A stretch of DNA of 64,000 bases from Gammaproteobacteria bacterium (GTDB lineage Bacteria; Pseudomonadota; Gammaproteobacteria; SZUA-229): contig JAOUNI010000002.1 in the NCBI GenBank assembly GCA_029881035.1, forward strand, positions 64,565-128,564. The letters run 5' to 3'. This document shows positions 13,343-63,044 of the stretch, in pieces (within the stretch, counting starts at the first letter, position 1; every line of letters begins with the position of its first letter). The notes under the pieces were generated by a model that did no database searches, was not told the DNA's origin, and worked only from the letters and a program-made list of their open reading frames with translations. Both the position numbers and the translations under genes were made by a program.

Positions 13343-14686
13343 ATGCTAGCTAAAGTTGTTATCGCTAATCGCGGTGAAATTGCACTGCGAATTCTTCGGG
13401 CATGTCGTGAACTCGGCATAAAAACGGTGGCTGTTCATTCAGAAGCCGACCGCGATCTTAAACACGTCCGCCTGGCTGATGAATCAGTCTGTATCGGCCC
13501 TGCTCCATCGAACCTGAGTTATTTAAATGTACCCGCTATTATCAGCGCAGCGGAAGTCACCGATGCTGTAGGCATTCATCCCGGTTATGGTTTCCTGTCA
13601 GAAAATGCTGATTTTGCTGAACGTGTAGAAAACAGTGGCTTTGTTTTTATCGGCCCCAAGCCGGAATCGATTCGAATCATGGGCGACAAAGTGGCCGCCA
13701 TTAAAGCCATGCAGGATGCCGGAGTACCTTGCGTCCCCGGTTCCGATGGTCCGGTTGGCGACAATACCGAAAAAAATATAAAGCTGGCCAAAAAGATTGG
13801 CTACCCTATCATCATTAAAGCTGCTGGTGGCGGTGGTGGACGCGGTATGCGTGTGGTGCATTCTGAAGCTGCACTATTAAATTCGATCGCGCTCACCAAA
13901 CAGGAAGCCGGCCAATTTTTTGGCAATGACACGGTGTACATGGAGAAATACCTGGAGACACCACGTCACGTTGAAATTCAGGTGCTCTCTGATGGTCAGG
14001 GTAACGCCATTCACCTGGCCGAACGCGACTGCTCAATGCAACGCAGAAATCAGAAAGTGGTGGAAGAAGCGCCTGCACCCGGCATCACCGAAGAGCAACG
14101 CCAGAAAATTGGCCAACGCTGTGTCGATGCCTGCATAAAAATAAATTACCGTGGTGCCGGCACTTTCGAATTCCTCTATCAGGATGGTGAGTTCTATTTT
14201 ATTGAAATGAACACGCGCGTGCAGGTTGAGCATCCGGTTACCGAGATGATCACCGGTGTTGATATTATCAAAGAGCAACTTTATATCGCTTCGGGTGCAA
14301 AACTACGTTACAAACAAAGTGACATCAAGATTAGTGGCCACGCTATTGAATGTCGCATCAATGCCGAAGATGCAAAAACTTTTATGCCTTCACCAGGCAT
14401 GATCGAACGCTATCATCCACCCGGCGGCCCTGGCATACGCGTAGATACACATATTTACGGCGGCTACACAGTGCCACCTCACTATGATTCGATGGTTGGA
14501 AAACTGATTGCTCATGGCAATGACCGTGACATCGCCATTGCCCGCATGCGGGGCGCGCTGGATGAAATCAGCATCACCGGCATCAAAACCAATATTGATT
14601 TGCATAAGGAAATTCTGGGCGATGCGGCCTTCCAGGTTGGCGGCACCAATATCCATTATCTTGAGAAGAAACTGGGTATCGATTAA
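13343..14686 (+). CDS. accC: Biotin carboxylase subunit of acetyl-CoA carboxylase
   Basis: 447 aa, [33 protein letters not shown]..., ATP-grasp. Confidence 0.95.
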
Positions 14687-14687
14687 T

Positions 14688-14718
14688 CATTGGCCAGCAA
14701 TTGCTGGCCAATTTTTTT
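14688..14718. terminator. Bidirectional terminator: perfect 24-bp palindrome ATTGGCCAGCAATTGCTGGCCAAT plus T7
   Basis: Lies between the convergent accC and TraB/GumN genes. Confidence 0.7.
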
Positions 14719-14725
14719 ACCTGGG

Positions 14726-15604
14726 CTACTGGCGAACCACGTGATAACCGGCATTCTGCAACTGTTGCACGATGCCTTTATCACCGATCAAATGCCCCGC
14801 ACCGACAACCACAAAATACCGGCCTTTCTGTTTTAAATAACTTTTAATCGACTCGGTCATTTTAATATTGCGCTGAAAATATAACTGCTCATATAGCGAA
14901 ATCATCGCCGCATTCTCGTTAAGAATATCGTCGAACAATAATTTCTGTATGGCTTTCTCGTCGCCCTGCTTCCAGGCACTGATCATCGTATCCATTTCCT
15001 CCTCTACCGTTTCGAGGGCATAAAACGAATCCTGCAGCAACAGGTCTGCATCTTCTATATCAAGAAATATTCTTAACTGCTCATCCATGGTTTCGAGTGC
15101 AAGAATTTTTTTATGGTTCTTCGCCTTTTCCATAAAATGCACATCGATACCCTGCTCCGGTTTCAACCCTGCCTGCTGGGCCTGTATCGCCGCCAAAGTC
15201 AGTACGACGATACCGGGCTTCTGTCTCTCTACCATGGAGGGAGAGATACCTGACTCGTTCAAATAATTTTGAAGCTGTTCATAAGTTTTCTTCGATAAAT
15301 GATCCTTGAGTGTTTCATTGCCCGAATACGAACCTTCGCTCTGCATCAAATGCTGAAAACGTGCGGTCGCCCCCGGCGAATTCATATCGACTTCTACCAC
15401 TAAGTTTTCCGATGCATCAAAAGCCCGCTCAATCTCTGCACGCAAAGGATAAAAACTGTCATTAGCAAAATGGATCGAACCAAACAGGTAAACCGTGGCT
15501 GCGCCCGAATCGACCCGCCAGAACAAAGCCCTGTCTTCACTGGCAATAACCTGAAAACTGAAAATCGCATATAAAACAAAGCTGAGAATAATTTTTTTAA
15601 ACAT
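14726..15604 (-). CDS. TraB/GumN family protein (periplasmic)
   Basis: Signal peptide; LFWRV...YLFGSIHF motif typical of the GumN/TraB family. Confidence 0.75.
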   Translation of the reverse strand: MFKKIILSFVLYAIFSFQVIASEDRALFWRVDSGAATVYLFGSIHFANDSFYPLRAEIERAFDASENLVVEVDMNSPGATARFQHLMQSEGSYSGNETLKDHLSKKTYEQLQNYLNESGISPSMVERQKPGIVVLTLAAIQAQQAGLKPEQGIDVHFMEKAKNHKKILALETMDEQLRIFLDIEDADLLLQDSFYALETVEEEMDTMISAWKQGDEKAIQKLLFDDILNENAAMISLYEQLYFQRNIKMTESIKSYLKQKGRYFVVVGAGHLIGDKGIVQQLQNAGYHVVRQ

Positions 15605-18859: not shown

Positions 18860-19474
<615 letters not shown>

Positions 19475-19499
19475 ACTAAAATATTCGACAATTAACCAC

Positions 19500-19527
19500 G
19501 CGTTCTTCTATTTGTTCAGAAGAACGC
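19500..19527. terminator. Bidirectional terminator hairpin GCGTTCTTC-N10-GAAGAACGC
   Basis: Perfect 9-bp stem between the convergent diaA and 19571-20434 genes. Confidence 0.6.
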
Positions 19528-19570
19528 ATGAATTAACTTTTCAAAATTTAACTCTTACCATTGCTGATAA

Positions 19571-20434
19571 TTACCAATATGGATAACCATAGTATCCGTT
19601 GGGCGCATTATTTGGGGCATAATAAGGGTTATTATTATAACCATATGGATTTACGGGCTGTGGTTGACCATTATAATTCCAACCCGAATTTTGCGCAGCC
19701 ATATTAACCGGCGCCTGATTGGGCTGCTGATAGCTATTAACTGGATAATTCATGTAACCAGGCATCTCACGCGCGCCGTTATACGGCATGTTAGCTGAAC
19801 GTTTAGCCCACTCCTGCTGATACCTCGCCTGCTCTTGCTGCATCAGTGTCTGTTGATCCTTAACCCATTGTGGTGGCTCTGATGCATTTCGATTTGCCTG
19901 ATAATTACCCGCATTCTGCTTTTCAAGCTCGGAGCGACGCTTATCCATTTGCGCCTGCCTGTCTTTGATCCATTGTGGCGGCTCGGATGAAGCTCTATTC
20001 GAGAGATAGTTACCCGCATTTAGTTTTTCAAATTCTACGCGACGCTTATCCATCTCTGCACGTTGCTGAGTCACCCACTCAGGTTGCTGAACACGATTTC
20101 CGTTAGCCATCGATGGCACCTGAAAATAATTTAAATTGGCATCAGCAACAATAGCAGATGAGGAATTATTGTCTGATGAGAGCAAAGAGTTTAATTGCTG
20201 TGGCATAACTATGTAAGCCACTATAGTAGCAGTAGGTATGGCCACAATTAATGCCATTAAGGCAGATGAGATTATATGTGATTCTGTTTTAGGGGTAGCT
20301 TCACTTACCGTAGATTTCTTATCTGATGACATCATTCCCATCGCCTTTAATTTATTCGCTATCTTCTTTGTTTTTTTCTTATCAATACTGTCACCATCTT
20401 CACTATTGGCCGTACTATCATTTTTAATAACCAT
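19571..20434 (-). CDS. Membrane-anchored repeat protein with an Asn/Tyr/Pro/Gln-rich prion-like C-terminus (last gene of the low-complexity cluster)
   Basis: 287 aa. One TM helix; three ~35-aa repeats (E)PPQW[VI]KD[RQ]QAQMDKRR.E.EK.NAGNY; C-terminal ~60 aa almost only N/Y/P/G/Q, ending YPYW. Confidence 0.6.
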   Translation of the reverse strand: MVIKNDSTANSEDGDSIDKKKTKKIANKLKAMGMMSSDKKSTVSEATPKTESHIISSALMALIVAIPTATIVAYIVMPQQLNSLLSSDNNSSSAIVADANLNYFQVPSMANGNRVQQPEWVTQQRAEMDKRRVEFEKLNAGNYLSNRASSEPPQWIKDRQAQMDKRRSELEKQNAGNYQANRNASEPPQWVKDQQTLMQQEQARYQQEWAKRSANMPYNGAREMPGYMNYPVNSYQQPNQAPVNMAAQNSGWNYNGQPQPVNPYGYNNNPYYAPNNAPNGYYGYPYW

Positions 20435-20467
20435 TAGTCTACTCCTCTAATCTTTCAATTTAATAAT

Positions 20468-21031
20468 TTACCAGGGTGTGTACGAATTCATAAATTGCAT
20501 AGGTCTTGATACGCTGTTGTTGATCACCGCTATTTCATGACTCATTTGACCCGCTGATACACTCATACTTCTTACATAGCCATTCATTTCCTGTATCGTC
20601 AATGTTTGCCTTTCCATATTGATAACAACAGCCTGCATAGTACCGTTAATTGAATTCATTTCAGTAGCTATAGCGCCTACATCCTTGGTCAGACTATTAA
20701 TAAGAAAGAATCCATATATCGCTAAGACAATGAAAGCAAACATAGCAGGAAAAACAATCATTTCCCATCGACGTGTACTAGCGGTAAATGTTTTAGTTAA
20801 CTCATTCAGACTTTCACTTAAGACGTGTTCAACACTATCTTTTATCGTGTCATCATAATAACCAAACATAGATAACTTCTTGTCACAACGATTCGGCTCA
20901 TTAGGACATGTATCTGGGTCACCAGTACAGCCCTCTATTCCTGGCTCGCACTCGATTGATTCTATAATTACGTCTCTTACGTTCTTTTTCTTATGAGGGT
21001 GCGCATTTTTGTCGGACATTGTATTTACCAC
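20468..21031 (-). CDS. Hypothetical single-TM protein with a Cys-rich N-terminal region
   Basis: 187 aa. ECEPGIEGCTGDPDTCPNEPNRCDKK then a central TM helix; C-terminus ends ...YTPW. Confidence 0.55.
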   Translation of the reverse strand: MVNTMSDKNAHPHKKKNVRDVIIESIECEPGIEGCTGDPDTCPNEPNRCDKKLSMFGYYDDTIKDSVEHVLSESLNELTKTFTASTRRWEMIVFPAMFAFIVLAIYGFFLINSLTKDVGAIATEMNSINGTMQAVVINMERQTLTIQEMNGYVRSMSVSAGQMSHEIAVINNSVSRPMQFMNSYTPW

Positions 21032-21051
21032 TTATTTAATTCAAAAAAATA

Positions 21052-21903
21052 TTACCCGGAAATCTTATTTCTGAGTTTTTCCGCACTGACCACATCAAGA
21101 CCCTGAATAACCCTCAACAAGTAATTGACCTGTTGCCCCATCTGTTCATTCTTATCTCGCTCCAATAAACGAACTGCCGCCTCATAATAAGCCTCAGCCG
21201 CCTGTTTCCATTTACCCTGAGCGTAATAAACATTACCCAATTCGCCATAAATATCCGGGTCACTATCATCAATATTAAGAAGATCTAGATAGCCTCTCTC
21301 AGAATCGTGTATCTCGCCTTTCCAGAATAACTGCCTTGCCATAAACAAACCTTGTTTTGCGTCAATAGATACGCTATCAGTTGCAGAAACACTGGTATTT
21401 TCCCTACTACTAATAACTAAATTATCAGTTTTTTGTTCCACCGAAACCAATACCTTATCCTTTTCATCATTGTTCGATGCAGGCTCAATAGCAAAAGATG
21501 CCTTATCTGCATCAAACAGCATATCAACTTTTTTGTTTATTGAGCTCACAGTTTCAGCCAACACCTCCATAATGGCCGCTGCCCCCTCGGTTTTCTCATC
21601 TGTAGCGATATCTTTACCTGACTCCATAGCCACTGACACTGTTTCTACATTGTCATCCTTTACGGCAACATTATCCACGATCGATTCGCATTCCTTTTGA
21701 ACAGCTACTTCTCCTTGAATATTCGCAGCCAAATATGATGGAATTGAAATTTTGAATTTTTCTTCCGCGTAAGAAAGTGCCGTATTAATATGCTGATTGA
21801 CGTTTGCATGAAATACTATTGAACGGAAATAAATTAATGCTGAAAATGCTAGCAGCAATACAACAAGTTTTATTGGTTTTATTAAAAATCTTAAGACCTT
21901 CAT
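21052..21903 (-). CDS. TPR-like repeat membrane protein
   Basis: 283 aa. N-terminal TM anchor, acidic/Ser-rich middle, C-terminal TPR-like helices (YGELGNVYYAQGKWKQAAEAYYEAAVRLL). Confidence 0.65.
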   Translation of the reverse strand: MKVLRFLIKPIKLVVLLLAFSALIYFRSIVFHANVNQHINTALSYAEEKFKISIPSYLAANIQGEVAVQKECESIVDNVAVKDDNVETVSVAMESGKDIATDEKTEGAAAIMEVLAETVSSINKKVDMLFDADKASFAIEPASNNDEKDKVLVSVEQKTDNLVISSRENTSVSATDSVSIDAKQGLFMARQLFWKGEIHDSERGYLDLLNIDDSDPDIYGELGNVYYAQGKWKQAAEAYYEAAVRLLERDKNEQMGQQVNYLLRVIQGLDVVSAEKLRNKISG

Positions 21904-21919
21904 TTTTTATGCCTCATAT

Positions 21920-22561
21920 CTAATTTATTAGATCTGGATATAGCGCATGCGCCAATTGATCAAATTCTTCTGCACTTTTACTCTTCCCTGAAAGCTCAAA
22001 TATTGAAAGCCCTTCACTTAAGGTACGCCTAAAACTCGTTCTCTGACATAGCCTGTATGGAATTACCCTGAATTTTTCCAGCATTTTTAGTGCCTGTTCT
22101 GCCTCATCGGATTCCCTCACGGCATGATGCGTATCAGCCCTGTTTATAAATGCAACTAATTCTGGATGATTATTATCACCACATGCATCATTAATTATTT
22201 TCAAAAATCTCTGCGTCGCCCATACATCAGGCTGGCTCGGTTGCACTGGAACAATAACTCGGTGAGCAATGCTTATAGCTGCTTTCATCGCATCCATATT
22301 AGCCGCACCCACATCTACTAAAACATGACACGAATGATTATTTAATGTCCCACAAATATCATTACTATCTGCAACACTTACTAACAGCTCAGGCTCAATA
22401 TCATCTTCTCTCCTAACCAATGCAACATCATGCAATGTTTGTTGAGGGTCAAGATCATAGGCAACCACGACTTCACCTTTCATCTTCAGCCAGATAGCAA
22501 GATTGAATGCAACCGTACTTTTGCCTGATCCACCTTTAAGATTTGCGATGACTGTTATCAT
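21920..22561 (-). CDS. Orphan ParA/MinD-like P-loop ATPase. The track ORF extends to 22597; the likely start is MITVIANLKGG
   Basis: Deviant Walker A IANLKGGSGKST with the signature Lys; ParA-type Walker A' and Walker B; no parB or parS nearby. Confidence 0.8.
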   Translation of the reverse strand: MITVIANLKGGSGKSTVAFNLAIWLKMKGEVVVAYDLDPQQTLHDVALVRREDDIEPELLVSVADSNDICGTLNNHSCHVLVDVGAANMDAMKAAISIAHRVIVPVQPSQPDVWATQRFLKIINDACGDNNHPELVAFINRADTHHAVRESDEAEQALKMLEKFRVIPYRLCQRTSFRRTLSEGLSIFELSGKSKSAEEFDQLAHALYPDLIN

Positions 22562-22568
22562 TCTGTAC

Positions 22569-23333
22569 TCACCTGTTAGTGTATTCAGGGCGAACATCTG
22601 GCTGAGATACTATTTTTGCGTAGTCTCCGGGGACACTGAATAAATCATCTGGCTGTTTGGAGACCACGATATTTTTTAGCTCTCTAATATAACCACCTGG
22701 CAACTCTTCTTTTATGGCGATTTTCAGGCCCGGGTCATACCATTGGTAAGATACTGCACTTTTTCCATCTGGACGACTCAACGTTCGCTGCCATTTTTCG
22801 GTATTTCGTCCATTTATTTTTTCCTTTTGTAACATCTTTAACTCTGCCACCGAACCATCTGGAAAAAATTCTCTTATCGCAAGTTTTCTTTTTATATCCA
22901 TCCAGTGAAGAGTCCGTAATTTTCTTCCTCTATTTTCAGAGATGATTTGCCATTTTTCTGTATCGTGTCCGTCGATGTTTTCATTACCCAATTTCTCACA
23001 TATTGCGTTTGATATTTGATCACATGGCGTATCATTATTTTTCTTATTATTTTGCCTATCAAACACTTTCTCCACATATGATTTCAATGGGTTGTTAATA
23101 AGGACTGCCCTACCCTCTTGCGGATAAACAATTTCGACAATCACTTGTTCGTTAACTACAGACTCATTTCTAACCGCTTTTTCACTCACAAATAATTTGG
23201 TCTGTCTCATGTTCTGTTGTGGCGCACTAATCACTGCATCTGCTGAAAACTCTACAATTTTTGGCTCAGCATATGTATTGCCGGTTATAAACACCGAACA
23301 AGCTATAACCAGGATTTTTCTCAGAGCACCCAT
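22569..23333 (-). CDS. Hypothetical secreted protein
   Basis: 254 aa; signal peptide MGALRKILVIACSVFITGNTYA; overlaps or abuts the ParA-like gene. Confidence 0.6.
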   Translation of the reverse strand: MGALRKILVIACSVFITGNTYAEPKIVEFSADAVISAPQQNMRQTKLFVSEKAVRNESVVNEQVIVEIVYPQEGRAVLINNPLKSYVEKVFDRQNNKKNNDTPCDQISNAICEKLGNENIDGHDTEKWQIISENRGRKLRTLHWMDIKRKLAIREFFPDGSVAELKMLQKEKINGRNTEKWQRTLSRPDGKSAVSYQWYDPGLKIAIKEELPGGYIRELKNIVVSKQPDDLFSVPGDYAKIVSQPDVRPEYTNR

Positions 23334-23412
23334 AACACGCTACCATTTATTTTGCATATTGCTAACTTCAACCGAGTTTGTCACATCCCTGTGAACACTC
23401 ATACTTCACTGA

Positions 23413-23865
23413 CTACTGAGCAGGTGCTGGTGCAGGTGCTGCTTGAGGAGCATAACCAGGACCATAATAACCAGGACCGGGGCCGTAACCATAACCAGGA
23501 CCAGGGCCATAACCGTAGCCATTGTTATAACCGTTATAGCCGTTATAGTTATTTCGACCGTAGTAGTCACCAGCACCATTACCATAACCACTACCACGAG
23601 CATTTGAGTTGCCACTCATGTTGAAGCCAAAATTGCCATCGCCAAGGAAATCGCCCATACCATTGCCATTACCCCAACCATTGCCATTATTACCCCAGTT
23701 GTTATTGTTGTTGCCCCAACCATTGTTATTATTATTCCAGGGACCCCACCAGGCATTTGCTGTCATAGGCGTAGCCAGAGCAGCTGCTACCGCTGCAACA
23801 CACAGTACTTTTTTCACGTTTTTCATAATATTTCTCCCCTTCTTCTGAAGGCTATTAAAAGACAC
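23413..23865 (-). CDS. Secreted extremely low-complexity Gly/Asn/Trp/Tyr-rich protein
   Basis: 150 aa. Signal peptide ..ATPMTANA, then WWGPWNNNNNGWGNNNNNWGNNGNGWGNGNG...NYNGYNGYNNGYGYGPGPGYGYGPGPGYYGPGYAPQAAPAPAPAQ. It has the same orientation as its neighbours, and the alternative-frame ORFs lack signal peptides. Confidence 0.6.
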   Translation of the reverse strand: MSFNSLQKKGRNIMKNVKKVLCVAAVAAALATPMTANAWWGPWNNNNNGWGNNNNNWGNNGNGWGNGNGMGDFLGDGNFGFNMSGNSNARGSGYGNGAGDYYGRNNYNGYNGYNNGYGYGPGPGYGYGPGPGYYGPGYAPQAAPAPAPAQ

Positions 23866-23958
23866 AATTTAAATATTAAACTGTTTGCTCTCTGGCCAAA
23901 TCTAACTGAATCATGTCGCAGAGAGCACCGCACGTGACCAGTTTTAAAAATGTTTGTA

Positions 23959-24582
23959 TTACCAGAACCTTGGCCTGGATAATAAACCTGTGTACGGATA
24001 AGAACCGCCAGGATAACCGCCATAACCTAGTCCGTTCGAAATTAAACCCGGATAGATTGATGGTGTAATTAATGGATTGTGATGCATCGTTCCTGGATAA
24101 CCATAAGCACCGCCTAAAGGTAGCAGTGATCTTCCGTAAGCAGTGAATGGATCAGCCGATACAAAATTATTACGATATGAGGAATCATTCTGATGACTCC
24201 ATTGTTTAAATCGCTGATCATGAAGCTTCATATTGTTTTTATTGCTCGGTTTCCGATCTGGAATATTTCCCCATGGCCGTTGACCAGAAAACGTTTTTTT
24301 AGAGTAAGTAGATTTAACTGCTTTCCATGGATTTTTGGTCGTTACCGGTGAATAACGAACTTTATTATCTTCATTAAAAGAGCGACCACTTCCCCATTGC
24401 TTTTCCCCGACACTATTCCGAAAATCAGGGTCAACAGAAGGTGGAGAAAAGTCTGAAAAACTTGATTTTGATACAAAATCTTCCTTCCACTCTGTTGCGC
24501 TCACTGGCTGAAGATAAAGACCACTATTAACAAGCAGCAATATAAGAATTTTATTCAAATAACTATTGTCAGCTATATTCAT
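23959..24582 (-). CDS. Secreted protein with a Gly/Tyr/Pro-rich C-terminal domain
   Basis: 207 aa. Signal peptide; C-terminus ...LPLGGAYGYPGTMHHNPLITPSIYPGLISNGLGYGGYPGGSYPYTGLLSRPRFW. Confidence 0.55.
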   Translation of the reverse strand: MNIADNSYLNKILILLLVNSGLYLQPVSATEWKEDFVSKSSFSDFSPPSVDPDFRNSVGEKQWGSGRSFNEDNKVRYSPVTTKNPWKAVKSTYSKKTFSGQRPWGNIPDRKPSNKNNMKLHDQRFKQWSHQNDSSYRNNFVSADPFTAYGRSLLPLGGAYGYPGTMHHNPLITPSIYPGLISNGLGYGGYPGGSYPYTGLLSRPRFW

Positions 24583-24657
24583 AACATCATCTCTGTATCT
24601 TATATTTCAATTCATTTAACAAAAAACTAACCTGCATCATATTTTTCAACAATGGAA

Positions 24658-25146
24658 CTAGTACCGTTGCCCCTGATACATTGGTTGCTGATAATATTCT
24701 GGCGGCACAGCACCAGGACCGTAAACCGGGCCACGTGCAGAAGGGAAAGGTTGCTGAAATCTATTATCTTGAACGCCGGGAGCACGACCTGAATAAGTAT
24801 TTGGCGCTGGTTGCATTTGATTATAATTCCATTGTGGCTGTTGATTTGGCCGATTCTGAGATTGCATATTTGATTGTTTCATTCGTTGCTCCATCTGAGC
24901 CTGGCGTTGTTTCACCCAATCTGGCACCTCACTGTTTAACTGGTTGGATTGTGCAGAGGGATGCCCATAATTTTTTCTCATATGCGAACAATTTTGAACG
25001 CTCTGATCTGAAGTATATTGATCAGTATCATCAACTGATTTATATGGGCCAGGAGGTGGCATCACATTCTCATAGCTTCCAGCAAAAACTGAATGATTTA
25101 TTGCCATTGTCATAGCAGTCATTAATACTAATATTGTTGTTTTCAT
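24658..25146 (-). CDS. Secreted Gln/Asn/Pro-rich low-complexity protein sharing the PxWVKQRQAQME motif with 19571-20434
   Basis: 162 aa. Signal peptide ..SVFAG; PDWVKQRQAQMEQRMKQSNMQSQNRPNQQPQWNYNQMQPAPN...; 24 bp downstream of the RND gene stop. Confidence 0.55.
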   Translation of the reverse strand: MKTTILVLMTAMTMAINHSVFAGSYENVMPPPGPYKSVDDTDQYTSDQSVQNCSHMRKNYGHPSAQSNQLNSEVPDWVKQRQAQMEQRMKQSNMQSQNRPNQQPQWNYNQMQPAPNTYSGRAPGVQDNRFQQPFPSARGPVYGPGAVPPEYYQQPMYQGQRY

Positions 25147-25170
25147 GCGGTTGCCTTATATAATTTTCTT

Positions 25171-28100
25171 TTATTCTGTTTCCAATCCAGGATTAAGACG
25201 GATTCCTCGTCTTTTCTTCTTCGTTGCAATCTTTTTTTCACTTACGATAACTGTATTTTTTTTATCTTCTGATGACTCACTGATGGATGCGATTTTTTTC
25301 CCAGGTGCTGACTTTTTTTTCACCGCAGTCGCAGCTTTCTCAGCTGCTACTTTCTTCTGTGCTGCAGTCTTCTTTTTCACCACCGGCCTCGATACTTTGG
25401 CGTCACCTACTTTTTCCTGAACCACCTCATTGTTGACAGCCTGATTCTGGTCACTAGTTTGAGTTTGTGAGGAACTTTGATTCACATCTCCATCATTGCC
25501 TGAAACTACCGATGAAGAAACTGGGGCGGGCGTGGGATTACCTCCTGATGAGCCTGAGCCGCCACCATCTGGTGAACTCGGACCGGAACCACCTGAGTCA
25601 CTACTGAATCGTGCAAGCAAACTCTGTATACCCATGCGAACCATCATGACAATCATGCGGCCAATATAGAAAGCCCATGTCACCGCATTAATTAACTGCA
25701 TCCAGATTCTTAACCATAAAGGTAACTGATAAGCCGGAGCTTCAGGCTCACTTACTTTAACTTTAATAGCGGGATTTTCCATGCCTGCCAGCAAATAGAA
25801 CTGCTTGCTGACACTTATACAACCCAACGGAATCACTACCAGAGTTAACACCGTGGCGACACCCGCACCATATAACAGACTGACGGCCATGCCCTTGAAA
25901 ATCAAATCATCAAGAATCATATAGGCACCTGCCATCAACGTTAGCGCCGTGATCAGGATAGGACGCATACGTGCTTTACCTGCCAGCACCACTGCCTCCT
26001 TAATATCCACGCCATTGGCCACCTCATGCTTGACGAACTCAACCAGCAAAATGGAATTTCGCACCACGATCCCTGCCAGCGCGATAAAACCAATCATAGA
26101 TGTGGCAGTAAATTCCGCATTCGCAAACCAGTGCCCAGGAATAATCCCAATGAGCGTCAACGGGATAGGTGCCATAATCAAACCACCGAGAGTAAAATTC
26201 TTGAACTCCCAGACGATCAGTCCATAAATCAGCAACATGGCCGCCATAAATGCGCCGCCCATATCCCTGAATGTTTCATAGGTCACGGTCCATTCACCGC
26301 CCCACTCAAAACCGCTTTCGAAACTATCATCCGGCGGTCCTAACAAACCCATTGGCATGCCAGTCATGGTGACACCGTCAGGTGTCACATAATTTTCGAG
26401 AATATCTTCCACATCAAACATGCCATAAATTGGCGCACCAAGACGTCCTTGCATTTCACCCGTAACGTATTCAACATCACGCAAATCTTTGTGATAAACA
26501 AGCTGGTCCTGTTCTTCTTTGATAAAACGACCTAGCTCAGAAAGCGGCACAGTTTCACCATTAACACCAGTAATTGGCAAATTACCCAGGCGGTTAATTT
26601 GTGAACGCACTCCCATAGGCGCCTGAATCACAATATAAGTTGGTTCCAGTACTACCCCTTTTTTCACATCACCTAGTTTGTAGCCACCCATAACCATAGC
26701 CAGGTTACGATTTATCGCGTCAACAGAAATACCGCGTCGTACTGCTTTTTCAGTATCCACCTCAAAACGCCAGTAATCGTGCGGCGTCGCCATATAATTA
26801 TCAACGTCAACAATACCTTCAGCTTCCCTGAAAATTTCAGTCATATCGCGAGCAACCTGACGACGCGTCTCTGCATCAGGTCCATATATTTCAGCAACCA
26901 CTGTCTGTAATACAGGCGGGCCTGGCGGCATTTCAATAACCTGAATATCAGCGCCTAAACTGTCAGCCATATCTTTTATCAACTCACGTGCATTAACCGC
27001 AATTTCATGACTCGCGCGTTCTCGATCTTCCTTATCAAGCAGCATGACCTGGATGTCAGCTTGCCAAGGCTCCTGCCTTAAATAGTAATGGCGCACCATA
27101 CCATTGAAATTAAACGGAGAGGCCGTGCCTACATAGGTTTGAATTGATGTCACTTCTGGTAATTCACGAAGTTTTGCCGCGAGCTGCGTAGTCACATTAG
27201 CCGTAACTGGCATTGCTGTTCCGTCAGGCATATTGATCACAATATTAAACTCAGGCTTGTTATCAAAAGGCAACATCTTTACAGTAACTGCCTGGGTGTA
27301 AAACAATGAACAAGCAATAAATGTTGCCGCAATTAATAAAAACAGAAACATCAAACCCAATGCCCTGTTATTACATAATGGATTCATGCAAGGGTCATAA
27401 AATTTACCAATCCATGCTGTAATTTTTTCCTCTCGCCTTTCTGCCTTTTCCAGTGCGCCTAACTGTGGACGAACCCGCATTGCAAACCAGGGCACAAAAA
27501 TAAATGCTGCAAATAATGAAAGCATCATAGCGGCCGAACCTAGCACCGGGATGGGTCTCATGTAAGGCCCCATCAAACCACTAACAAAACCCATTGCCAA
27601 TAAAGCAGCGACAATAGCCAATGTTGCCAGGATGGTTGGATTGCCAACCTCTCGCACCGCATCAATAGCAATATTGGTGGTTGTCTTTCCTGCCTTTAAC
27701 CATCGCCTGAAAATATTTTCGACTACCACGGTGGCATCATCGACCAGAATACCGATGGTAAAGACCATGGCAAATAAACTCACACGGTCAATGGTGTAAT
27801 CAAGAAACCACGCCGACCACACCGTCATTAAAATGACCAGTGGTATGATAAAAATGACCACCGATGCAGCACGAAGTCCCAGGCCAATTAAACATAAAAT
27901 ACTGACAGCGACCGTGGCTTCAAATAATGCTATCAGTAACTCATTAACCTTATCGTTGGCTGTTTTCCCGTAATTACGCGTAATGCTAACCTGAACATTA
28001 TCAGGGATAAGATGACCTTTTAAGGATTCAAGTTTTTCCAGCAACTGATTTGCAACTGACACACCATTAGAACCAATTTTCTTTGCCACTGCGATAGTGA

Positions 28101-29052
28101 CTGCTGGTGAATCTATAGTCTCGGGAGTTGAACCATCATGTGCCAGCCCAGTTGAAAAAGCCACCATCTTGCTAGTTTCTTCAGGCGCCTGATAAACCCA
28201 GGCAATATCACGCACATAAACCGGTGAACCTTTTCTGATCGCCACAACAAGATTAGAAACATCTTGTGCGCTTTTTAAGAATGCGCCTGTATAAACGTGA
28301 AAGCTGTCATTATCTCCTTCCACATTACCCGCAGATTGTTCAGCGTTCGCTGTTTTAATTGTGTTGGCAACATCTTCTATGCTAATCCCAAAACCACTCA
28401 AACGTTCTGGAGAAACCTCAACACGTATTTGTTCTGCTCGTCCACCAACAACAAAACCTTTACCTGAATTTGGAACTTCCTCAAGGCGCTGTAGCACATC
28501 CAGTCCCAGGGTACGTAGTACAGAATCATCGATCCCCTGATCTTCTGACCATAAAGTGATAGTCACTACTGGCACATCATCAGTACCTACAGGTTTAACC
28601 AGAGGCATTGAAACGCCTGGAGGAATCTTATCCAGATTCGACTGCAATTTATCATGCACTTTGACAATCGATTCGCCAAAGTCTTCGCCCACTCTGAAAC
28701 GCGCTGTCACCATACCCTGACCACGCGCGCTGGCAGAGTAAACGTGACGCATACCAGGTATTTCACTGATCATGCGTTCTAGCGGATTAACCGCAAGACT
28801 GGCCACCTGTTCTGCCGAAGCACCGGGATACTGAAAAAAGATATCCACCATGGGCACGGAAATCTGTGGATCTTCCTGACGCGGAGTAAACAGCAGCCCC
28901 AGTATGCCAATACCCAAAAAGGCCAGCATTAATAGAGGGGTAACCGGTGAATTTATAAACTGACGGGCAATACGCCCGGCGATACCAAGATTAGCTTCGT
29001 CTAGCTGCAGATCATCATCCTGCAGGTTCTTTTCGTCTATTTCATTTGACAT
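25171..29052 (-). CDS. RND (AcrB/HAE1-like) efflux permease with a ~230-aa C-terminal low-complexity Gly/Ser then Lys/Ala-rich histone-H1-like tail
   Basis: 1293 aa. 12-TM RND architecture with two large periplasmic loops (core ~1060 aa). The tail ...SGGSGPSSPDGGGSGSSGG...KKKTAAQKKVAAEKAATAVKKKSAPGKK...KKKRRG has no counterpart in canonical AcrB/MexB. Confidence 0.9.
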   Translation of the reverse strand: MSNEIDEKNLQDDDLQLDEANLGIAGRIARQFINSPVTPLLMLAFLGIGILGLLFTPRQEDPQISVPMVDIFFQYPGASAEQVASLAVNPLERMISEIPGMRHVYSASARGQGMVTARFRVGEDFGESIVKVHDKLQSNLDKIPPGVSMPLVKPVGTDDVPVVTITLWSEDQGIDDSVLRTLGLDVLQRLEEVPNSGKGFVVGGRAEQIRVEVSPERLSGFGISIEDVANTIKTANAEQSAGNVEGDNDSFHVYTGAFLKSAQDVSNLVVAIRKGSPVYVRDIAWVYQAPEETSKMVAFSTGLAHDGSTPETIDSPAVTIAVAKKIGSNGVSVANQLLEKLESLKGHLIPDNVQVSITRNYGKTANDKVNELLIALFEATVAVSILCLIGLGLRAASVVIFIIPLVILMTVWSAWFLDYTIDRVSLFAMVFTIGILVDDATVVVENIFRRWLKAGKTTTNIAIDAVREVGNPTILATLAIVAALLAMGFVSGLMGPYMRPIPVLGSAAMMLSLFAAFIFVPWFAMRVRPQLGALEKAERREEKITAWIGKFYDPCMNPLCNNRALGLMFLFLLIAATFIACSLFYTQAVTVKMLPFDNKPEFNIVINMPDGTAMPVTANVTTQLAAKLRELPEVTSIQTYVGTASPFNFNGMVRHYYLRQEPWQADIQVMLLDKEDRERASHEIAVNARELIKDMADSLGADIQVIEMPPGPPVLQTVVAEIYGPDAETRRQVARDMTEIFREAEGIVDVDNYMATPHDYWRFEVDTEKAVRRGISVDAINRNLAMVMGGYKLGDVKKGVVLEPTYIVIQAPMGVRSQINRLGNLPITGVNGETVPLSELGRFIKEEQDQLVYHKDLRDVEYVTGEMQGRLGAPIYGMFDVEDILENYVTPDGVTMTGMPMGLLGPPDDSFESGFEWGGEWTVTYETFRDMGGAFMAAMLLIYGLIVWEFKNFTLGGLIMAPIPLTLIGIIPGHWFANAEFTATSMIGFIALAGIVVRNSILLVEFVKHEVANGVDIKEAVVLAGKARMRPILITALTLMAGAYMILDDLIFKGMAVSLLYGAGVATVLTLVVIPLGCISVSKQFYLLAGMENPAIKVKVSEPEAPAYQLPLWLRIWMQLINAVTWAFYIGRMIVMMVRMGIQSLLARFSSDSGGSGPSSPDGGGSGSSGGNPTPAPVSSSVVSGNDGDVNQSSSQTQTSDQNQAVNNEVVQEKVGDAKVSRPVVKKKTAAQKKVAAEKAATAVKKKSAPGKKIASISESSEDKKNTVIVSEKKIATKKKRRGIRLNPGLETE

Positions 29053-29098
29053 TTTTATTCAGCCGGATTTAAAAAAATATTCTATGTGTAACGGATTA

Positions 29099-30415
29099 TT
29101 ATTTAGAGAAATCAGGCGTCCAGCCTGATCGAATACCCGGCGATGGTGAAGCAAAAATTTGCTCCCCAGGGCTAATACCAGATAATACAGCGACATTTTC
29201 ATTATCAACTTCATCACCCAGTCGTACTAGTCGCATCTCGGCACGACCCTCGTGATTAAGTACGAATACAGCTGGTAAACTGCCACGCCGAACAATGGCG
29301 GAGGAAGGAATAATTGGCATATCGGCAATAGGTGTGTTCACATCAGGGATCATTACTTCAGCATACATACCTGGACCACCCGGCACGCCCTCAGGTAAAT
29401 CAAATTTCACAACCACAGTGTGTCTCTGTGAATCCGCGACAGGAAAAATTTGCGCTACGCGCACATCAATGTAAGTATCACCCACGTCCAATTTTGCAGG
29501 CACGACCATATCTTCACTCAGTGCCGACACCAGTCTGGCAGGCACATCAACCTTGAGCTGCAGAAAACGGATATCCGCAAATTGCAATAAAGCCTGGCCA
29601 GGCTGAACCGTGTCGCCGACTTCTGCAACTTTCTTCACAATAACGCCTTCAAATGGCGAAATAGCCCGTGTATCACGTAAGCGCGCATCTATTTCATCAA
29701 TACGCGAACGTGCACCGTGAATTCCACTTTGCGCCTGATCGACGTGCGTACCCTGAGAGTACAGATCCACATCACGGACCACCCATGGATTCAAGCCGTT
29801 ATATGATGGATAACCGCCTGAGGATGGGCCGCCACCAAAACCCATAAATTTTTCAAACATGGAAGGGAAGTACCCCATGCTTGGTGCAGTTTGCTGCTGT
29901 TGCTGCTGCAAAGCCTGTGGCGCCCAGAACTCCCTGGAATATTGAGCTCGTGCATCCTGTAATGTTGATGACCTGCCATAAAGGTCAGCCATTGCCTGTT
30001 GCCGCTGCGCAAGCACATCGTCATCATCAATAGCGACCAGAATCTGGCCTTCGTCAAACCATTCACCTTCACTACCTGCAATAAACTCAACCCGTCCTGG
30101 AGTCTGAGCAGTTAAGGTCACTTCTCTATAAGGCTTAACAGTACCGCCCAATACTACATGTGCACCTGTTTTTGCATTGGTGACAGTGATAATGGATCCA
30201 TGCTGCTTACCACCACGCTGTACAGTCGGGTAGAAAACTTTGCCTGACGTATGCGCCGACTGATTACTGTTATCTGTCCGATAATAGGCTTTTTCGGCCT
30301 GCAACTGAAAAGATATTATTAATGATACTGCGAGCAATAATCGGCTTAATAAATAAGCACTATCTGCCGGCCGCGTAGTAAACCACTGGTTGTTACGCAT
30401 TACTGCTTTCCCCAC
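29099..30415 (-). CDS. RND efflux membrane fusion (periplasmic adaptor) protein with a Gln6/Gly/Tyr/Ser/Pro-rich insertion
   Basis: 438 aa. N-terminal anchor; biotinyl/lipoyl-like and beta-barrel MFP domains; ~45-aa insertion QQQQQQTAPSMGYFPSMFEKFMGFGGGPSSGGYPSYNGLNPW. Confidence 0.85.
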   Translation of the reverse strand: MGKAVMRNNQWFTTRPADSAYLLSRLLLAVSLIISFQLQAEKAYYRTDNSNQSAHTSGKVFYPTVQRGGKQHGSIITVTNAKTGAHVVLGGTVKPYREVTLTAQTPGRVEFIAGSEGEWFDEGQILVAIDDDDVLAQRQQAMADLYGRSSTLQDARAQYSREFWAPQALQQQQQQTAPSMGYFPSMFEKFMGFGGGPSSGGYPSYNGLNPWVVRDVDLYSQGTHVDQAQSGIHGARSRIDEIDARLRDTRAISPFEGVIVKKVAEVGDTVQPGQALLQFADIRFLQLKVDVPARLVSALSEDMVVPAKLDVGDTYIDVRVAQIFPVADSQRHTVVVKFDLPEGVPGGPGMYAEVMIPDVNTPIADMPIIPSSAIVRRGSLPAVFVLNHEGRAEMRLVRLGDEVDNENVAVLSGISPGEQIFASPSPGIRSGWTPDFSK

Positions 30416-30449
30416 AAAACTTAAAGAGATTGAAATCTATAGACGGTAT

Positions 30450-30836
30450 CTAGATTTTTGCCATGACAGCAAAACTTTTGATGAAGGGTCCGGCCATACG
30501 AGGATCTTTAATCATAGCGCCATAATCTCCAACTAAAAATTTCAGCTTACCTGTGGTATAGGCCATACCTAACCCCATCATCCCCGGTGGACTCTTCACC
30601 CATTTACCCCAATGCTCATTGGATGCACGTAAGTCCCAGTTCAACGTCTCACCGTTATACTCACCAGCTGAAACCACATGACCGTTTTCAACAGTAATAA
30701 CACCTACAGGCTTTTCTTCACCTGTGAAGCCATAAGCAATTACAGAGTTAAAATTTATCTGTTTAAGTGCATCTGCCAATCCAGGTTCAGCATTCCAGGC
30801 ATTCTGAAACTTCTTCATCCAGTCTTCTTTAAACAT
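30450..30836 (-). CDS. SCP2 (sterol carrier protein 2)-like lipid-binding domain protein; first gene of the RND operon
   Basis: 128 aa, WMKKFQNAWNAEPGLADALK...GKLKF...AMAKI; SCP-2 sterol-transfer fold signature; 34 bp upstream of the MFP gene. Confidence 0.7.
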   Translation of the reverse strand: MFKEDWMKKFQNAWNAEPGLADALKQINFNSVIAYGFTGEEKPVGVITVENGHVVSAGEYNGETLNWDLRASNEHWGKWVKSPPGMMGLGMAYTTGKLKFLVGDYGAMIKDPRMAGPFIKSFAVMAKI

Positions 30837-30879
30837 TTTTTATTTCTCCAAAATAATTTAACGACCCATATCTGACATA

Positions 30880-30895
30880 GCAAGAGTTATGCCAA
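30880..30895 (-). promoter_or_regulatory. Sigma-54 (-24/-12) promoter TGGCAT-N5-TTGC on the - strand, upstream of the SCP2-MFP-RND operon
   Basis: The reverse complement of GCAAGAGTTATGCCAA is TTGGCATAACTCTTGC, matching the TGGCAC-N5-TTGCW consensus with GG/GC correctly spaced. It sits about 45 bp upstream of the SCP2 start, with a divergent sigma-54 activator gene. Confidence 0.55.
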
Positions 30896-30923
30896 CTCCC
30901 AACTCATTGATTTACATCAAACA

Positions 30924-31055
30924 ATTGTTGCTCATTGTTCCATCATGCAACAATACTTTTATTGACTAATGTCACTAAGTGGATGAATACATGTAAAAAC
31001 CAAGGATATATTGGGTGAAACATTGTTGCGCAACACCGCAATAATTGCAACACTG
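30924..31055. promoter_or_regulatory. Putative upstream activator sequences: inverted repeat ATTGTTGC-N15-GCAACAAT (30924-30954), perfect palindrome TGTTGCGCAACA (31024-31035) and a TTGCAACA half-site (31045-31052)
   Basis: Repeated TTGTTGC/GCAACAA dyads 30-170 bp upstream of the sigma-54 promoter, inside the divergent intergenic region with the EBP gene. Confidence 0.4.
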
Positions 31056-31094
31056 TGATTAGATAATAATTTTTCCCCTACTAAGGAACGTCTA

Positions 31095-32444
31095 ATGCAG
31101 CCCAGTGAACCCAACTTTGCCCTGTTACTGGAAAACATTGTTTCATTCATCGATGAAGGTGTCATAGTAACTGATAATCTAGGTAACGTTCTATACCATA
31201 ACCCAGCAGTATTTAAATTACTCGGCATTGAACCCAACAAACCGATCAATAAACTACACGACATAGGTAAGTTTAATTTACAGAAAGCTATCTTACGTGC
31301 CGCTATCGACGCGGGTGAAACCGATGCTGCCGGTAAACCCAGTGACAACTTTATTAGCTTCGAACAACAATTTCATCATGATGGCTGCAATCGACTGGTC
31401 GAAATTATTAGTCGCCTGATTACCAGCCCTGATCACAAAGAGAAAAACCGCCTCATACTGTTCAGAGATCGAACAGACGCACGGCATATGGAAGCCGTGC
31501 TCAATCCCATGGGCAAACAGATGAGCAGCCAGGATCCACGCATGCTGGAAATTATTGATCGCATCTATCAAATTGCCCCAACTAATGCTTTTATCCTGCT
31601 ACAAGGGGAGTCTGGCACAGGTAAAACACAATTGGGACGATTGATCCATACTCAAAGCAGTCGATCAAAAGAGGCATTTGTGGAAGTGAACTGTGCAGCT
31701 ATACCAGAAACCCTGATTGAATCTGAATTATTCGGCCATGTTAAGGGGGCATTTACCGGTGCCAGTAGAGGTCGCCCAGGAAGGTTTCAGAGCGCACACA
31801 AAGGCACATTATTTCTTGATGAAGTTGGAGAGATCCCCCTGCATCTACAGGCAAAACTATTACGAGCCATTCAGGATCAGGAGTTCGAAATGGTGGGCTC
31901 AGATAAGCCCGTACGCGTTGACGTACGTATTATAGCCGCCTCCAACAAAAATCTAAGACAGATGGTAGATAAGGGCAAGTTCCGCGCCGACCTATTTTAT
32001 AGACTGGCCGTTATCCCCATAACCATACCTTCACTTAAAGAAAGACCAGGCGATATTATATTATTATCCAAACACTTCTGCGCCCAGTTAGTGGCCAGAG
32101 GTTACCCTGCCAACATTACTTGTAGCGACGAAGCCACTCGTATGATGATGGATTACCCCTGGCCCGGGAACGTACGTGAGCTTGAAAATGCGGTAGAACA
32201 TGGTCTAATTTGTGCCATCGATGGCCAGGTAAGAACTGAAAGCCTGCCTCAGGATATACGTGAACATAGCCTTAAGCTGAACAAGCCGATTCATGACGCT
32301 GAAGACAATGCAATTCAACATGCCTTCGAAATAGAATCTACATTAAAACAGGTTAATGGCAATAAAGCCGAAGCGGCAAAGGTACTGGGCGTAAACCGCA
32401 CCACACTATGGCGGTGGATACAAAAATACGGCATTGAAATATAA
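31095..32444 (+). CDS. Sigma-54-dependent Fis-family transcriptional activator with an N-terminal PAS-like sensor domain
   Basis: 449 aa. AAA+ sigma-54 interaction domain (GESGTGKT, GAFTGA, ESELFGH), C-terminal HTH (RTTLWRWIQKYGI). Confidence 0.9.
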   Translation: MQPSEPNFALLLENIVSFIDEGVIVTDNLGNVLYHNPAVFKLLGIEPNKPINKLHDIGKFNLQKAILRAAIDAGETDAAGKPSDNFISFEQQFHHDGCNRLVEIISRLITSPDHKEKNRLILFRDRTDARHMEAVLNPMGKQMSSQDPRMLEIIDRIYQIAPTNAFILLQGESGTGKTQLGRLIHTQSSRSKEAFVEVNCAAIPETLIESELFGHVKGAFTGASRGRPGRFQSAHKGTLFLDEVGEIPLHLQAKLLRAIQDQEFEMVGSDKPVRVDVRIIAASNKNLRQMVDKGKFRADLFYRLAVIPITIPSLKERPGDIILLSKHFCAQLVARGYPANITCSDEATRMMMDYPWPGNVRELENAVEHGLICAIDGQVRTESLPQDIREHSLKLNKPIHDAEDNAIQHAFEIESTLKQVNGNKAEAAKVLGVNRTTLWRWIQKYGIEI

Positions 32445-32512
32445 AACAAAGTGGCTATGTGATTATGATGTGCAGGGTTTGCTTTAAACTGATAACAGCT
32501 ACGGCATAAAGT

Positions 32513-63041: not shown

Positions 63042-63044
63042 TCC

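Follow-up and report, generated by a model that had tools for sequence, protein, structure and literature searches.

It has long been an open question how bacteria nucleate, coat and position sulfur globules and how they re-mobilise them. The known genes for sulfur globule proteins (SGPs) are scattered singly and give no hint of partners; the characterised sgp genes of Allochromatium vinosum are monocistronic (PMC10386293). In Beggiatoa leptomitoformis, mass spectrometry of the strain identified peptides of the SGP ALG67575.1, and transposon disruption of its gene abolished both globules and lithotrophic growth (PMC7356093). A further globule protein of A. vinosum, SgpD (Alvin_2515), is Sec-secreted and repetitive: its mature form starts with Trp and combines helical repeats with spaced prolines. 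SgpD localises to the globules, is not essential and reportedly occurs almost only in Chromatiaceae. Its gene lies beside genes for a hydrophobe/amphiphile exporter (HAE) and a regulator and forms its own transcription unit, the downstream gene not being co-regulated (PMC10386293). Here we describe three tandem genes for secreted proteins, open reading frames (ORFs) 1-3, in a 64-kb window of DNA from an uncultured gammaproteobacterium (64,000 nucleotides of contig JAOUNI010000002.1, assembly GCA_029881035.1), where an sgp gene, ORF1, is fixed in a conserved operon. We consider it fairly probable, going by their sequences, that the three proteins form, or help to form, the protein envelope or matrix of periplasmic sulfur globules.

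The three tandem genes that the first-pass annotation of this DNA had reported lie on the minus strand, and the peptide strings quoted there were correct:

23413-23826, minus strand: ORF1, a 137-aa precursor assigned to the SGP (PF17228) family, with a signal peptide, GWGNN repeats, the core MGDFLGDGNFGFNMSGNSNARGSGYG, a G/Y/N/P tail and an APAPAPAQ end
23959-24582, minus strand: ORF2, a 207-aa secreted, basic, predicted-disordered protein of a new family
24658-25146, minus strand: ORF3, a 162-aa secreted Q/P/N-rich protein of a new family

We assign ORF1 to the SGP family as a divergent, Asn-rich new member of a known family. PF17228 was its sole Pfam match (20.1 bits, E=0.0012, cut-off 26.7), covering profile positions 1-87 of 93. 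This score falls in the range of accepted members, because the accepted Beggiatoaceae SGPs of B. leptomitoformis, B. alba and Thioflexithrix score 27.7, 22.7 and 21.4 bits, respectively. PF17228 is carried by 13 of 17 database homologues of ORF1, with phmmer matches down to E=1e-17, and all 15 members of our alignment A1 match it at E<=0.01 (best 3e-18). At related loci (numbered with the prefix L), genes in the same slot as ORF1 exceed the 26.7-bit cut-off in L028 (46.0 bits), L055 (38.1), L037 (37.3), L032 (29.7) and L015 (27.9); the remaining same-slot orthologues score 11.8-17.6 bits or have no match.

The similarity between ORF1 and PF17228 depends on residue order beyond composition, because shuffled sequences score far lower. 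Mature ORF1 reached 24.0 bits with a hidden Markov model (HMM) of 12 distant A1 members, all of which match PF17228, and 1,000 shuffles of mature ORF1 scored -37.4 ± 6.1 bits with the same model (maximum -2.5), placing ORF1 ~10 standard deviations (SD) above them. Between the Trp-Gly repeats and the Gly/Tyr/Pro tail lies a non-repetitive core, GDxxGDGxFxFNMSGxxxGRGxG, that is conserved in the ORF1 alignment. ORF1 thus has homology to the SGP family beyond composition, together with the Sec signal peptide, mature size (~10-15 kDa), Gly/Tyr richness and spaced prolines of an SGP.

The Beggiatoa SGP, among those that the first-pass annotation had named for a profile or composition comparison, has the same architecture as ORF1. 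In ALG67575.1 (sequence from the supplement of PMC7356093), a leader ending in AHA precedes WWGG, followed by GWGNN, GDFNMSMGGGGRGYG, a Y/G/P tail and a terminal APAAPEAK; common to both proteins are AxA cleaved before WWG, GWGNN, GDF(N/G)FNMSG..GRGYG, the Y/G/P tail and APAPA(K/Q). More broadly, PF17228 SGPs (ALG67575.1, those of B. alba and Thioflexithrix, and A. vinosum SgpA and SgpB, the last two compared by description) resemble ORF1 in a Sec peptide cleaved before W(W)G, small mature proteins (11.6 kDa in ORF1, about 10-15 kDa in the others), Trp-Gly repeats, a GDF..FNMSG..GRGYG core, a Gly/Tyr/Pro tail whose prolines are evenly spaced and an Ala/Pro C-terminus. ORF1 differs from them in being 23% Asn, with NNNNN runs, and in scoring under the Pfam cut-off; it also lies in a predicted 11-gene operon, whereas A. 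vinosum sgp is monocistronic. The SGP likeness originally proposed for all three proteins therefore holds for ORF1, as a PF17228 homologue, but does not extend to ORF2 and ORF3, which have no detectable SGP homology. A likeness to eukaryotic Gly/Tyr structural proteins, raised at the same time, is confined to composition and short GYGPGPGY-type repeats, which the trio has in common with keratin-associated proteins, GPGxx silk and plant glycine-rich proteins; there is no homology. SGPs have been described in the literature as similar to keratins and plant cell-wall proteins.

All three are real genes under purifying selection, because dN/dS (the ratio of nonsynonymous to synonymous substitution rates) lies between 0.05 and 0.32 and the annotated frame alone is fully open in all loci. 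Against orthologous loci, dN/dS was 0.05-0.18 for ORF1, 0.16-0.29 for ORF2 and 0.24-0.32 for ORF3, with dS about 1-2, near saturation. The alternative-frame ORFs on both strands to which the first-pass annotation drew attention do include long antisense ORFs, but none of these frames is open throughout at all loci, as the annotated one is. Opposite ORF1, several loci have an antisense frame of up to 153 open codons, almost the length of the gene; it is not consistently open across loci and is what the GGN, AAY, TAY and TGG codons of G/N/Y/W usage would yield. Within ORF1, the DNA contains tandem repeats of 24, 18 and 9 bp, which probably account for the length range of its orthologues (134-161 aa). 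The closest database relative of ORF1, P0001 (3224-bp JGI contig), has a frameshift in its annotated C-terminus (..VMVMVLQVMVMVLQ..), which shows that the repeats provoke assembly or gene-calling errors.

The most likely start of ORF1 is ATG 23826, for a product of 137 aa, and not the GTG at 23865 chosen originally, because a conserved GAAGGGGAGAAAT ribosome-binding site precedes this ATG (kept in 7 aligned loci), all ORF1 orthologues retrieved begin MKN, MKT or MNN, and the gene-caller product on the identical ENA contig has 137 aa. The products called there for ORF2 and ORF3 have 207 and 162 aa. An exact look-up of the 137-aa product returned no database record, even though the ENA contig calls the gene. 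Signal peptides were assigned by eye and by conservation in orthologues: all three proteins have Sec-type leaders, as first proposed, with small residues at -3/-1 that are conserved in orthologues, and cleavage between ATPMTANA and WWGP in ORF1, LYLQPVSA and TEW in ORF2, and NHSVFA and GSY in ORF3. The extreme low complexity once ascribed to the whole trio applies to mature ORF1 (112 aa, 11.6 kDa, pI 4.4; G 29%, N 23%, Y 12%, P 9%; entropy 2.97 bits) but not to mature ORF2 (178 aa, 20 kDa, pI 9.8, S/G/P-rich; 4.02 bits) or mature ORF3 (140 aa, 16 kDa, pI 8.7, Q 17%, P 13%; 3.82 bits). The latter two are compositionally biased, with the entropy of ORF2 inside the range of other operon products and that of ORF3 slightly under it.

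ORF2 and ORF3 are two new, rare, fast-evolving and lineage-restricted families that keep only short linear motifs. Neither had a Pfam or NCBIfam match even at E<=5, and no NCBIfam model matched any of ORF1-3. Each has about 30 homologues (41-100% identity), and their motifs are conserved across 26-29 homologues. In ORF2 these are EW..GFSxFxPP, WxSGxSFN, NPWK, RPWGNxP and HDQRFKQW, ahead of a G/Y/P tail, and the C-terminal W is invariant; in ORF3 they are PPPGPYxS, P(E/D)WVKQRQAQME (one to several copies per orthologue), FPSARGPVYGPG and an RY end. A HMMER scan of 1.84 billion cluster representatives with ORF2 returned 20 unnamed clusters at E<=1e-3, and a pattern scan for ORF2 across 185,579 species genomes found 7 loci, all in metagenome-assembled genomes (MAGs) of uncultured Gammaproteobacteria. 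ORF2 is probably largely disordered: AlphaFold2 with a 26-sequence alignment gave no fold (pLDDT, the predicted local confidence, 53.9; pTM, the predicted template-modelling score, 0.16) and, besides the signal peptide, one short helix only (residues 117-132). By composition, ORF1 and ORF3 would be disordered as well. ORF2 and ORF3 always lie directly upstream of the sgp gene, and their presumed link to sulfur globules comes solely from this invariant adjacency.

The ORF3 motif recurs elsewhere in the operon. In a six-frame translation of the whole window, WVKxRQAxM occurred only in ORF3 and, in three copies, in the gene at 19571-20434, the last of the operon (hereafter 'last'); the same was true of related loci. 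We rejected the idea that ORF3 and the 'last' protein are full-length paralogues, as they share a ~12-residue motif alone and their HMM-level similarity was not significant. A Rosetta-stone link, in which ORF3-like helices would be fused to SGP domains in other bacteria, was likewise rejected for lack of significant similarity.

The trio is predicted to form the fourth to sixth genes of an 11-gene operon that has a sigma-54 promoter and a divergent activator gene opposite. The gene order is p128, adaptor and permease of a resistance-nodulation-division (RND) pump, ORF3, ORF2, SGP, DUF4412, ParA-like ATPase, TPR protein, DUF948-like and 'last'. The features other than the trio are as follows (TM, transmembrane):

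31095-32444, plus strand: divergent gene for a putative sigma-54 enhancer-binding protein with PAS-like N-terminal, AAA+ and HTH_8 domains and no receiver domain
30879-30894, minus strand: predicted sigma-54 -24/-12 promoter, TGGCATAACTCTTGCT (TGGCAT-N5-TTGCT), its 5' end ~58 nt upstream of the p128 ATG
30450-30836, minus strand: p128, first operon gene, a 128-aa cytoplasmic protein with 87% mean column identity
29099-30415, minus strand: RND periplasmic adaptor (membrane fusion protein, MFP); TIGR01730 150 bits against a cut-off of 94.9; Pfam HlyD_D23
25171-29052, minus strand: RND permease, 1293 aa; Pfam ACR_tran E=1e-141; TM helix 4 (TM4) GILVDDATVVVEN
23827-23958, minus strand: 132-nt leader between ORF2 and ORF1, a candidate structured RNA
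22569-23333, minus strand: secreted DUF4412 protein; Pfam PF14371 37.8 bits against a cut-off of 21.6; syntenic in all loci
21920-22561, minus strand: small orphan ParA/MinD-family ATPase, 213 aa; NCBIfam ParA_partition 134 bits, under the cut-off of 180; Pfam CbiA and MipZ
21052-21903, minus strand: membrane-anchored protein with C-terminal TPR
20468-21019, minus strand: DUF948-like membrane protein with one TM helix, an N-terminal 4-Cys motif and a PW end
19571-20434, minus strand: 'last' gene product, with a K-rich N-terminus, one TM helix, three EPPQW(V/I)KDRQAxM repeats (the ORF3 motif), an N/Y/P-rich tail and a YW end
19496-19531, minus strand: intrinsic-terminator-like 15-bp stem that closes the operon after 'last'
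53125-54615: rpoN, in the same window

To assess conservation, we compared this locus with its relatives. The 12-gene module (activator plus 11-gene operon) is fully syntenic in every related locus long enough, and in L010, L011 and L013 it is complete but for the activator gene; in L007/L008 and in L018 it stands between different flanking genes. When metagenomes were scanned with the p128 profile, 69 loci matched; of these, 19 include adaptor and pump genes, with 9 kb or more of sequence downstream. DUF4412 and ParA genes are also present in 14 of these 19, and all 14 have an SGP gene in the locus; in the loci inspected, this gene fills the slot that precedes DUF4412. In the diverged, higher-GC loci L028 and L037, the ORF2 and ORF3 HMMs no longer match, and the two genes between pump and SGP still encode secreted P/Q/Y/G-rich proteins: PPPxGPY is kept in the ORF3 slot, and RPWG..P and a terminal W in the ORF2 slot, after a lipoprotein-like LxxC site. 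L055 follows the same pattern and has two extra SGP paralogues. In the ORF2 and ORF3 positions, slot conservation outlasts sequence conservation.

A remote ORF2 relative, P0097 (E=1.4e-5), sits in the same cluster, in a version with an added gene for a dynamin-like GTPase. In the more distant operon version at L018, a 498-aa dynamin-like GTPase (14036-15532; Pfam Dynamin_N) with C-terminal TM helices is encoded between the DUF948-like and 'last' genes, which hints at membrane remodelling. Our literature search for this cluster found nothing relevant, and the operonic arrangement is undescribed within the literature searched. Other SGP-family genes that we examined are stand-alone, in housekeeping surroundings. 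Tandem SGP-family arrays were also seen in other uncultured bacteria, at L017 (7524-10133, four in a row) and L055 (7677-9160); some of the array proteins have a duplicated core or a long Q/A/K/E/M-rich helical C-terminal extension starting MTEEQ(K/Q)(Q/K)A (P0013-P0016).

The host is probably an uncultured sulfur-oxidising gammaproteobacterium of the GTDB order SZUA-229. Sox without SoxCD combined with reverse Dsr is a genotype associated with transient sulfur globule storage. Our genome scan found the cluster in three San Francisco Bay MAGs, 8_1_Jan_SF_Bin56, 8_1_July_SF_Bin54 and 8_1_Oct_SF_Bin34, all classified in o__SZUA-229; f__SZUA-229 (genera LH-M37 and JAPHQX01) and listed with an oxidative rDsrA (PMC12687941, Supplementary Tables 2, 4 and 8). 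Bin56 has sat, aprAB, dsrABCEFH, qmoABC, soxAXBYZ and sqr, with soxC = 0; Bin54 has this gene set plus fccAB; and Bin34 (~87% complete) has dsrABCEFH, qmoABC and soxAXBYZ, with soxC = 0 and no sat, aprAB or sqr listed (PMC12687941). The absence of sox and dsr would, as the first-pass annotation put it, have spoken against sulfur globules; these three cluster-bearing relatives have both dsr and soxAXBYZ. A thiotrophic symbiont of a frenulate tubeworm also belongs to SZUA-229 (PMC12045306). The window matches an NCBI MAG with the locus tags OEY66_01265 and OEY66_01270. Conserved operon proteins of the window are 80-90% identical to those of its relatives, from which its physiology is inferred.

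The window itself is core-genome DNA, with cytochrome bc1, sspAB, his genes, lpt genes and rpoN. Delta-class carbonic anhydrases are uncommon in bacteria; one (Pfam CA_like, E=2.7e-73) is encoded at 872-1756, adjoining a dienelactone hydrolase gene. A type II CRISPR-Cas system at 59976-63977, with a 1021-aa Cas9 (HNH, RuvC_III, Cas9_a) followed by Cas1, runs off the window end.

Regulation of the operon is likely to involve sigma-54. An element of this type was found at -54 to -64 in 6 of 6 activator-bearing loci examined (L001, L003, L005, L007, L012 and L018) and was absent in 3 of 3 activator-less loci (L010, L011 and L013); because its presence covaries with the activator gene, the element is probably functional. 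The operon thus has both a GG-N10-GC element and a cognate enhancer-binding protein gene. We considered a FisR-like role for the activator as a cysteine-based sensor of sulfane sulfur and rejected it, as the N-terminal domain has no conserved Cys. A scan for sigma-70 promoters and terminators gave chance-level results, save for the terminal hairpin.

A second layer of control may reside in the leader upstream of ORF1, an RNA that may govern SGP translation or transcript stability. This region (23827-23958) is far more conserved than the flanking coding DNA, where dS is about 1-2. Three hairpins are predicted, in which P1 pairs 23926-23920 with 23893-23887 and P3 pairs CCUUC (23851-23847) with GAAGG (23842-23838), overlapping the Shine-Dalgarno sequence GGGGAG. 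With RNAalifold and pair counts, 94% of cells were paired, 4 pairs had changed on both sides and 6-9 of 500 shuffles scored as high, which amounts to modest covariation support. Rfam had no family match in 19000-32500, leader included.

Several other operon products have recognisable domains. The pump has the features of an HAE-type RND system: an ACR_tran match, the Asp-Asp of LVDDATVVVEN in TM4, which we take to indicate HAE rather than a heavy-metal (HME) type, and a cognate MFP above its cut-off. No outer-membrane factor (OMF) gene is found among the module genes. An HME pump acting with metal-binding periplasmic proteins was rejected on the TM4 DD motif (by our own reading) and on ORF1-3, which are devoid of His/Cys/Met-rich sites. 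The permease is 1265-1293 aa long, a length conserved across loci, and ends in a cytoplasmic tail of ~200 aa (25171-25800) that is S/G-rich and then K/A-rich, with histone-H1-like KKxxAAxKK; judged by protein length, the tail is conserved across loci. The secreted DUF4412 protein is presumably a member of a LolA-like clan. The four-Cys motif of the DUF948-like protein is cytoplasmic and invariant in orthologues (CEPGxxGCTxDPDTCxNxPNxCDKK; CEPGxxGCTGDPDTCxNxPNxCDKK in the window copy). The 'last' gene contains a 105-bp tandem repeat and encodes its Lys-rich cytoplasmic N-terminus at 20270-20434. A terminal W is common to ORF2, the DUF948-like protein (PW) and the 'last' protein. For p128 there was no Pfam, NCBIfam or PDB relative and the single-sequence AF2 model was poor; its low-confidence secondary-structure order is a-a-b-b-b-a-b-b-a. 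Matches of the p128 and DUF4412 profiles to Kelch designs among PDB sequences were spurious and were discarded.

If the trio does serve sulfur globules, the activator would turn the operon on in response to a signal, and SGP, ORF2 and ORF3 would be co-produced and exported to the periplasm, where they would coat or nucleate hydrophobic zero-valent sulfur. The 'last' protein, with the ORF3 motif PEWVKQRQAQM in its periplasmic part, may tether the coat to the inner membrane. More speculatively, the HAE-type pump, its adaptor and the secreted DUF4412 protein may handle hydrophobic sulfur species or lipid, and the ParA-like ATPase may, with the lysine-rich cytoplasmic tails of the pump and the 'last' protein, space assembly sites along the cell.

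Two described systems provide partial parallels. ORF3 and the 'last' protein resemble SgpD, known to us by description only, in a probably helical Q/R/M-rich repeat with Pro-rich stretches and in having genes near an HAE-type RND pump; we regard this as a lead, short of a result. The module also resembles orphan ParA/MinD positioning systems, such as McdAB of carboxysomes and ParC/PpfA of chemoreceptor arrays, in that it encodes a small ParA-family ATPase (~210 aa) beside putative cargo genes. Together with the adjacent orphan ParA-like ATPase, the Lys-rich tails of the pump and the 'last' protein suggest a nucleoid-based positioning system, in which such tails could serve as adaptor or nucleoid contacts; we identified no adaptor homologue. 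The presumed cargo would be periplasmic, and we know of no precedent for ParA/MinD positioning of periplasmic cargo. Cargo positioning by this ATPase is purely conjectural.

Several observations weigh against a role for the trio in sulfur globules. The prediction is one from sequence alone. ORF1 itself scores under the PF17228 cut-off (20.1 versus 26.7 bits), BLASTP did not align ORF1 with the Beggiatoa SGP because of its low-complexity filtering, and an HMM of ORF1 orthologues scores the three Beggiatoaceae SGPs modestly (17.4, -0.7 and -6.5 bits, 3.4-8.6 SD above shuffles). Cross-searches with the ORF2 and ORF3 HMMs reached no SGP-family protein at a significant score, and neither protein has homology to a known SGP (PF17228 or the Beggiatoa SGP). 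An operonic sgp gene is atypical, because the A. vinosum genes are monocistronic and the other SGP-family genes examined stand alone. The p128-MFP-RND trio also occurs without an SGP gene, as in L060, so the pump need not be sulfur-specific. No sulfur-oxidation gene lies within the 64-kb window, the sox/dsr genotype is taken from published tables of three related MAGs other than the window's genome, and SZUA-229 is an uncultured order in which sulfur globules have not been observed.

In the strongest rival, ORF1-3 would form a general periplasmic or envelope matrix (a hydrogel, stress buffer or scaffold) that serves an RND-centred machine and is unrelated to sulfur storage, and the SGP-like composition would stem from the capacity for self-assembly that Gly/Tyr/Asn-rich proteins have in general. 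Such a matrix would fit a p128-MFP-RND trio that is wider than the SGP block and occurs alone, ORF2 and ORF3 sequences that have no homology to globule proteins, the predicted disorder of ORF2, and a set of partners (ParA-like ATPase, TPR and DUF948-like proteins, and the dynamin-like GTPase of L018) that suggests general envelope or membrane organisation. We nevertheless find it unlikely, if worth keeping in view, because the similarity of ORF1 to PF17228 depends on residue order beyond composition, its core GDFxxDGxFxFNMSG..GRG is common to the experimentally implicated Beggiatoa SGP, and the carriers with published gene tables are sulfur oxidisers with rDsr and a truncated Sox.

An extracellular role is less probable still. 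ORF1-3 would then coat extracellular sulfur or act as an adhesive or biofilm matrix on sediment particles, with the pump exporting a hydrophobic partner, and their signal peptides, sticky aromatic-rich disordered sequences and sediment-dwelling hosts suit this idea, as do the conserved aromatic residues at the ends of ORF2 and the membrane proteins. We judge it very unlikely, because the module encodes no OMF of a type I secretion system (T1SS), no type II (T2SS), curli-like or type V (T5SS) outer-membrane secretion component; RND pumps, to our knowledge, do not export proteins; the ORF3 motif recurs in the 'last' protein, anchored in the inner membrane, which suggests a partner in the periplasm; and the ORF2-slot protein has a lipoprotein-like LxxC site in some loci. 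For ORF2 and ORF3 taken by themselves, a general matrix, adhesive, biofilm or phase-separating role may still apply. That the ORFs are artefacts of repetitive DNA, or that an alternative or antisense frame is the one translated, is effectively refuted, long antisense ORFs (that of ORF1 open up to 153 codons in several loci) and the frameshifted P0001 entry notwithstanding, by dN/dS values well under 1 in the annotated frames at saturated dS, by conserved signal peptides, start sites and ribosome-binding site, by the annotated frame alone being fully open in all loci and by motifs kept across 26-29 homologues.

Returning to a globule envelope or matrix as the preferred role of the trio, its setting allows a much bolder proposal, which we hold to be improbable as it stands: that the 11-gene sigma-54 operon is devoted to building and positioning periplasmic sulfur globules and would be their first genetic 'organelle kit'. 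In this picture, SGP, ORF2 and ORF3 would make up the coat, the membrane anchor with the ORF3 motif would tether it, the pump and a DUF4412 carrier would move hydrophobic sulfur, the ParA-like ATPase and, in some lineages, the dynamin-like GTPase would space or remodel sites from the cytoplasmic side, and the leader RNA would set the level of SGP translation.

The hosts of this module are abundant uncultured sediment sulfur oxidisers. If the association of its genes is not functional, ORF1 would be a routine new SGP homologue, and ORF2 and ORF3 orphan envelope proteins. If it is functional, the operon would supply a concrete, testable list of candidate globule-biogenesis factors, as well as two new families of disordered bacterial proteins with sharply defined linear motifs.

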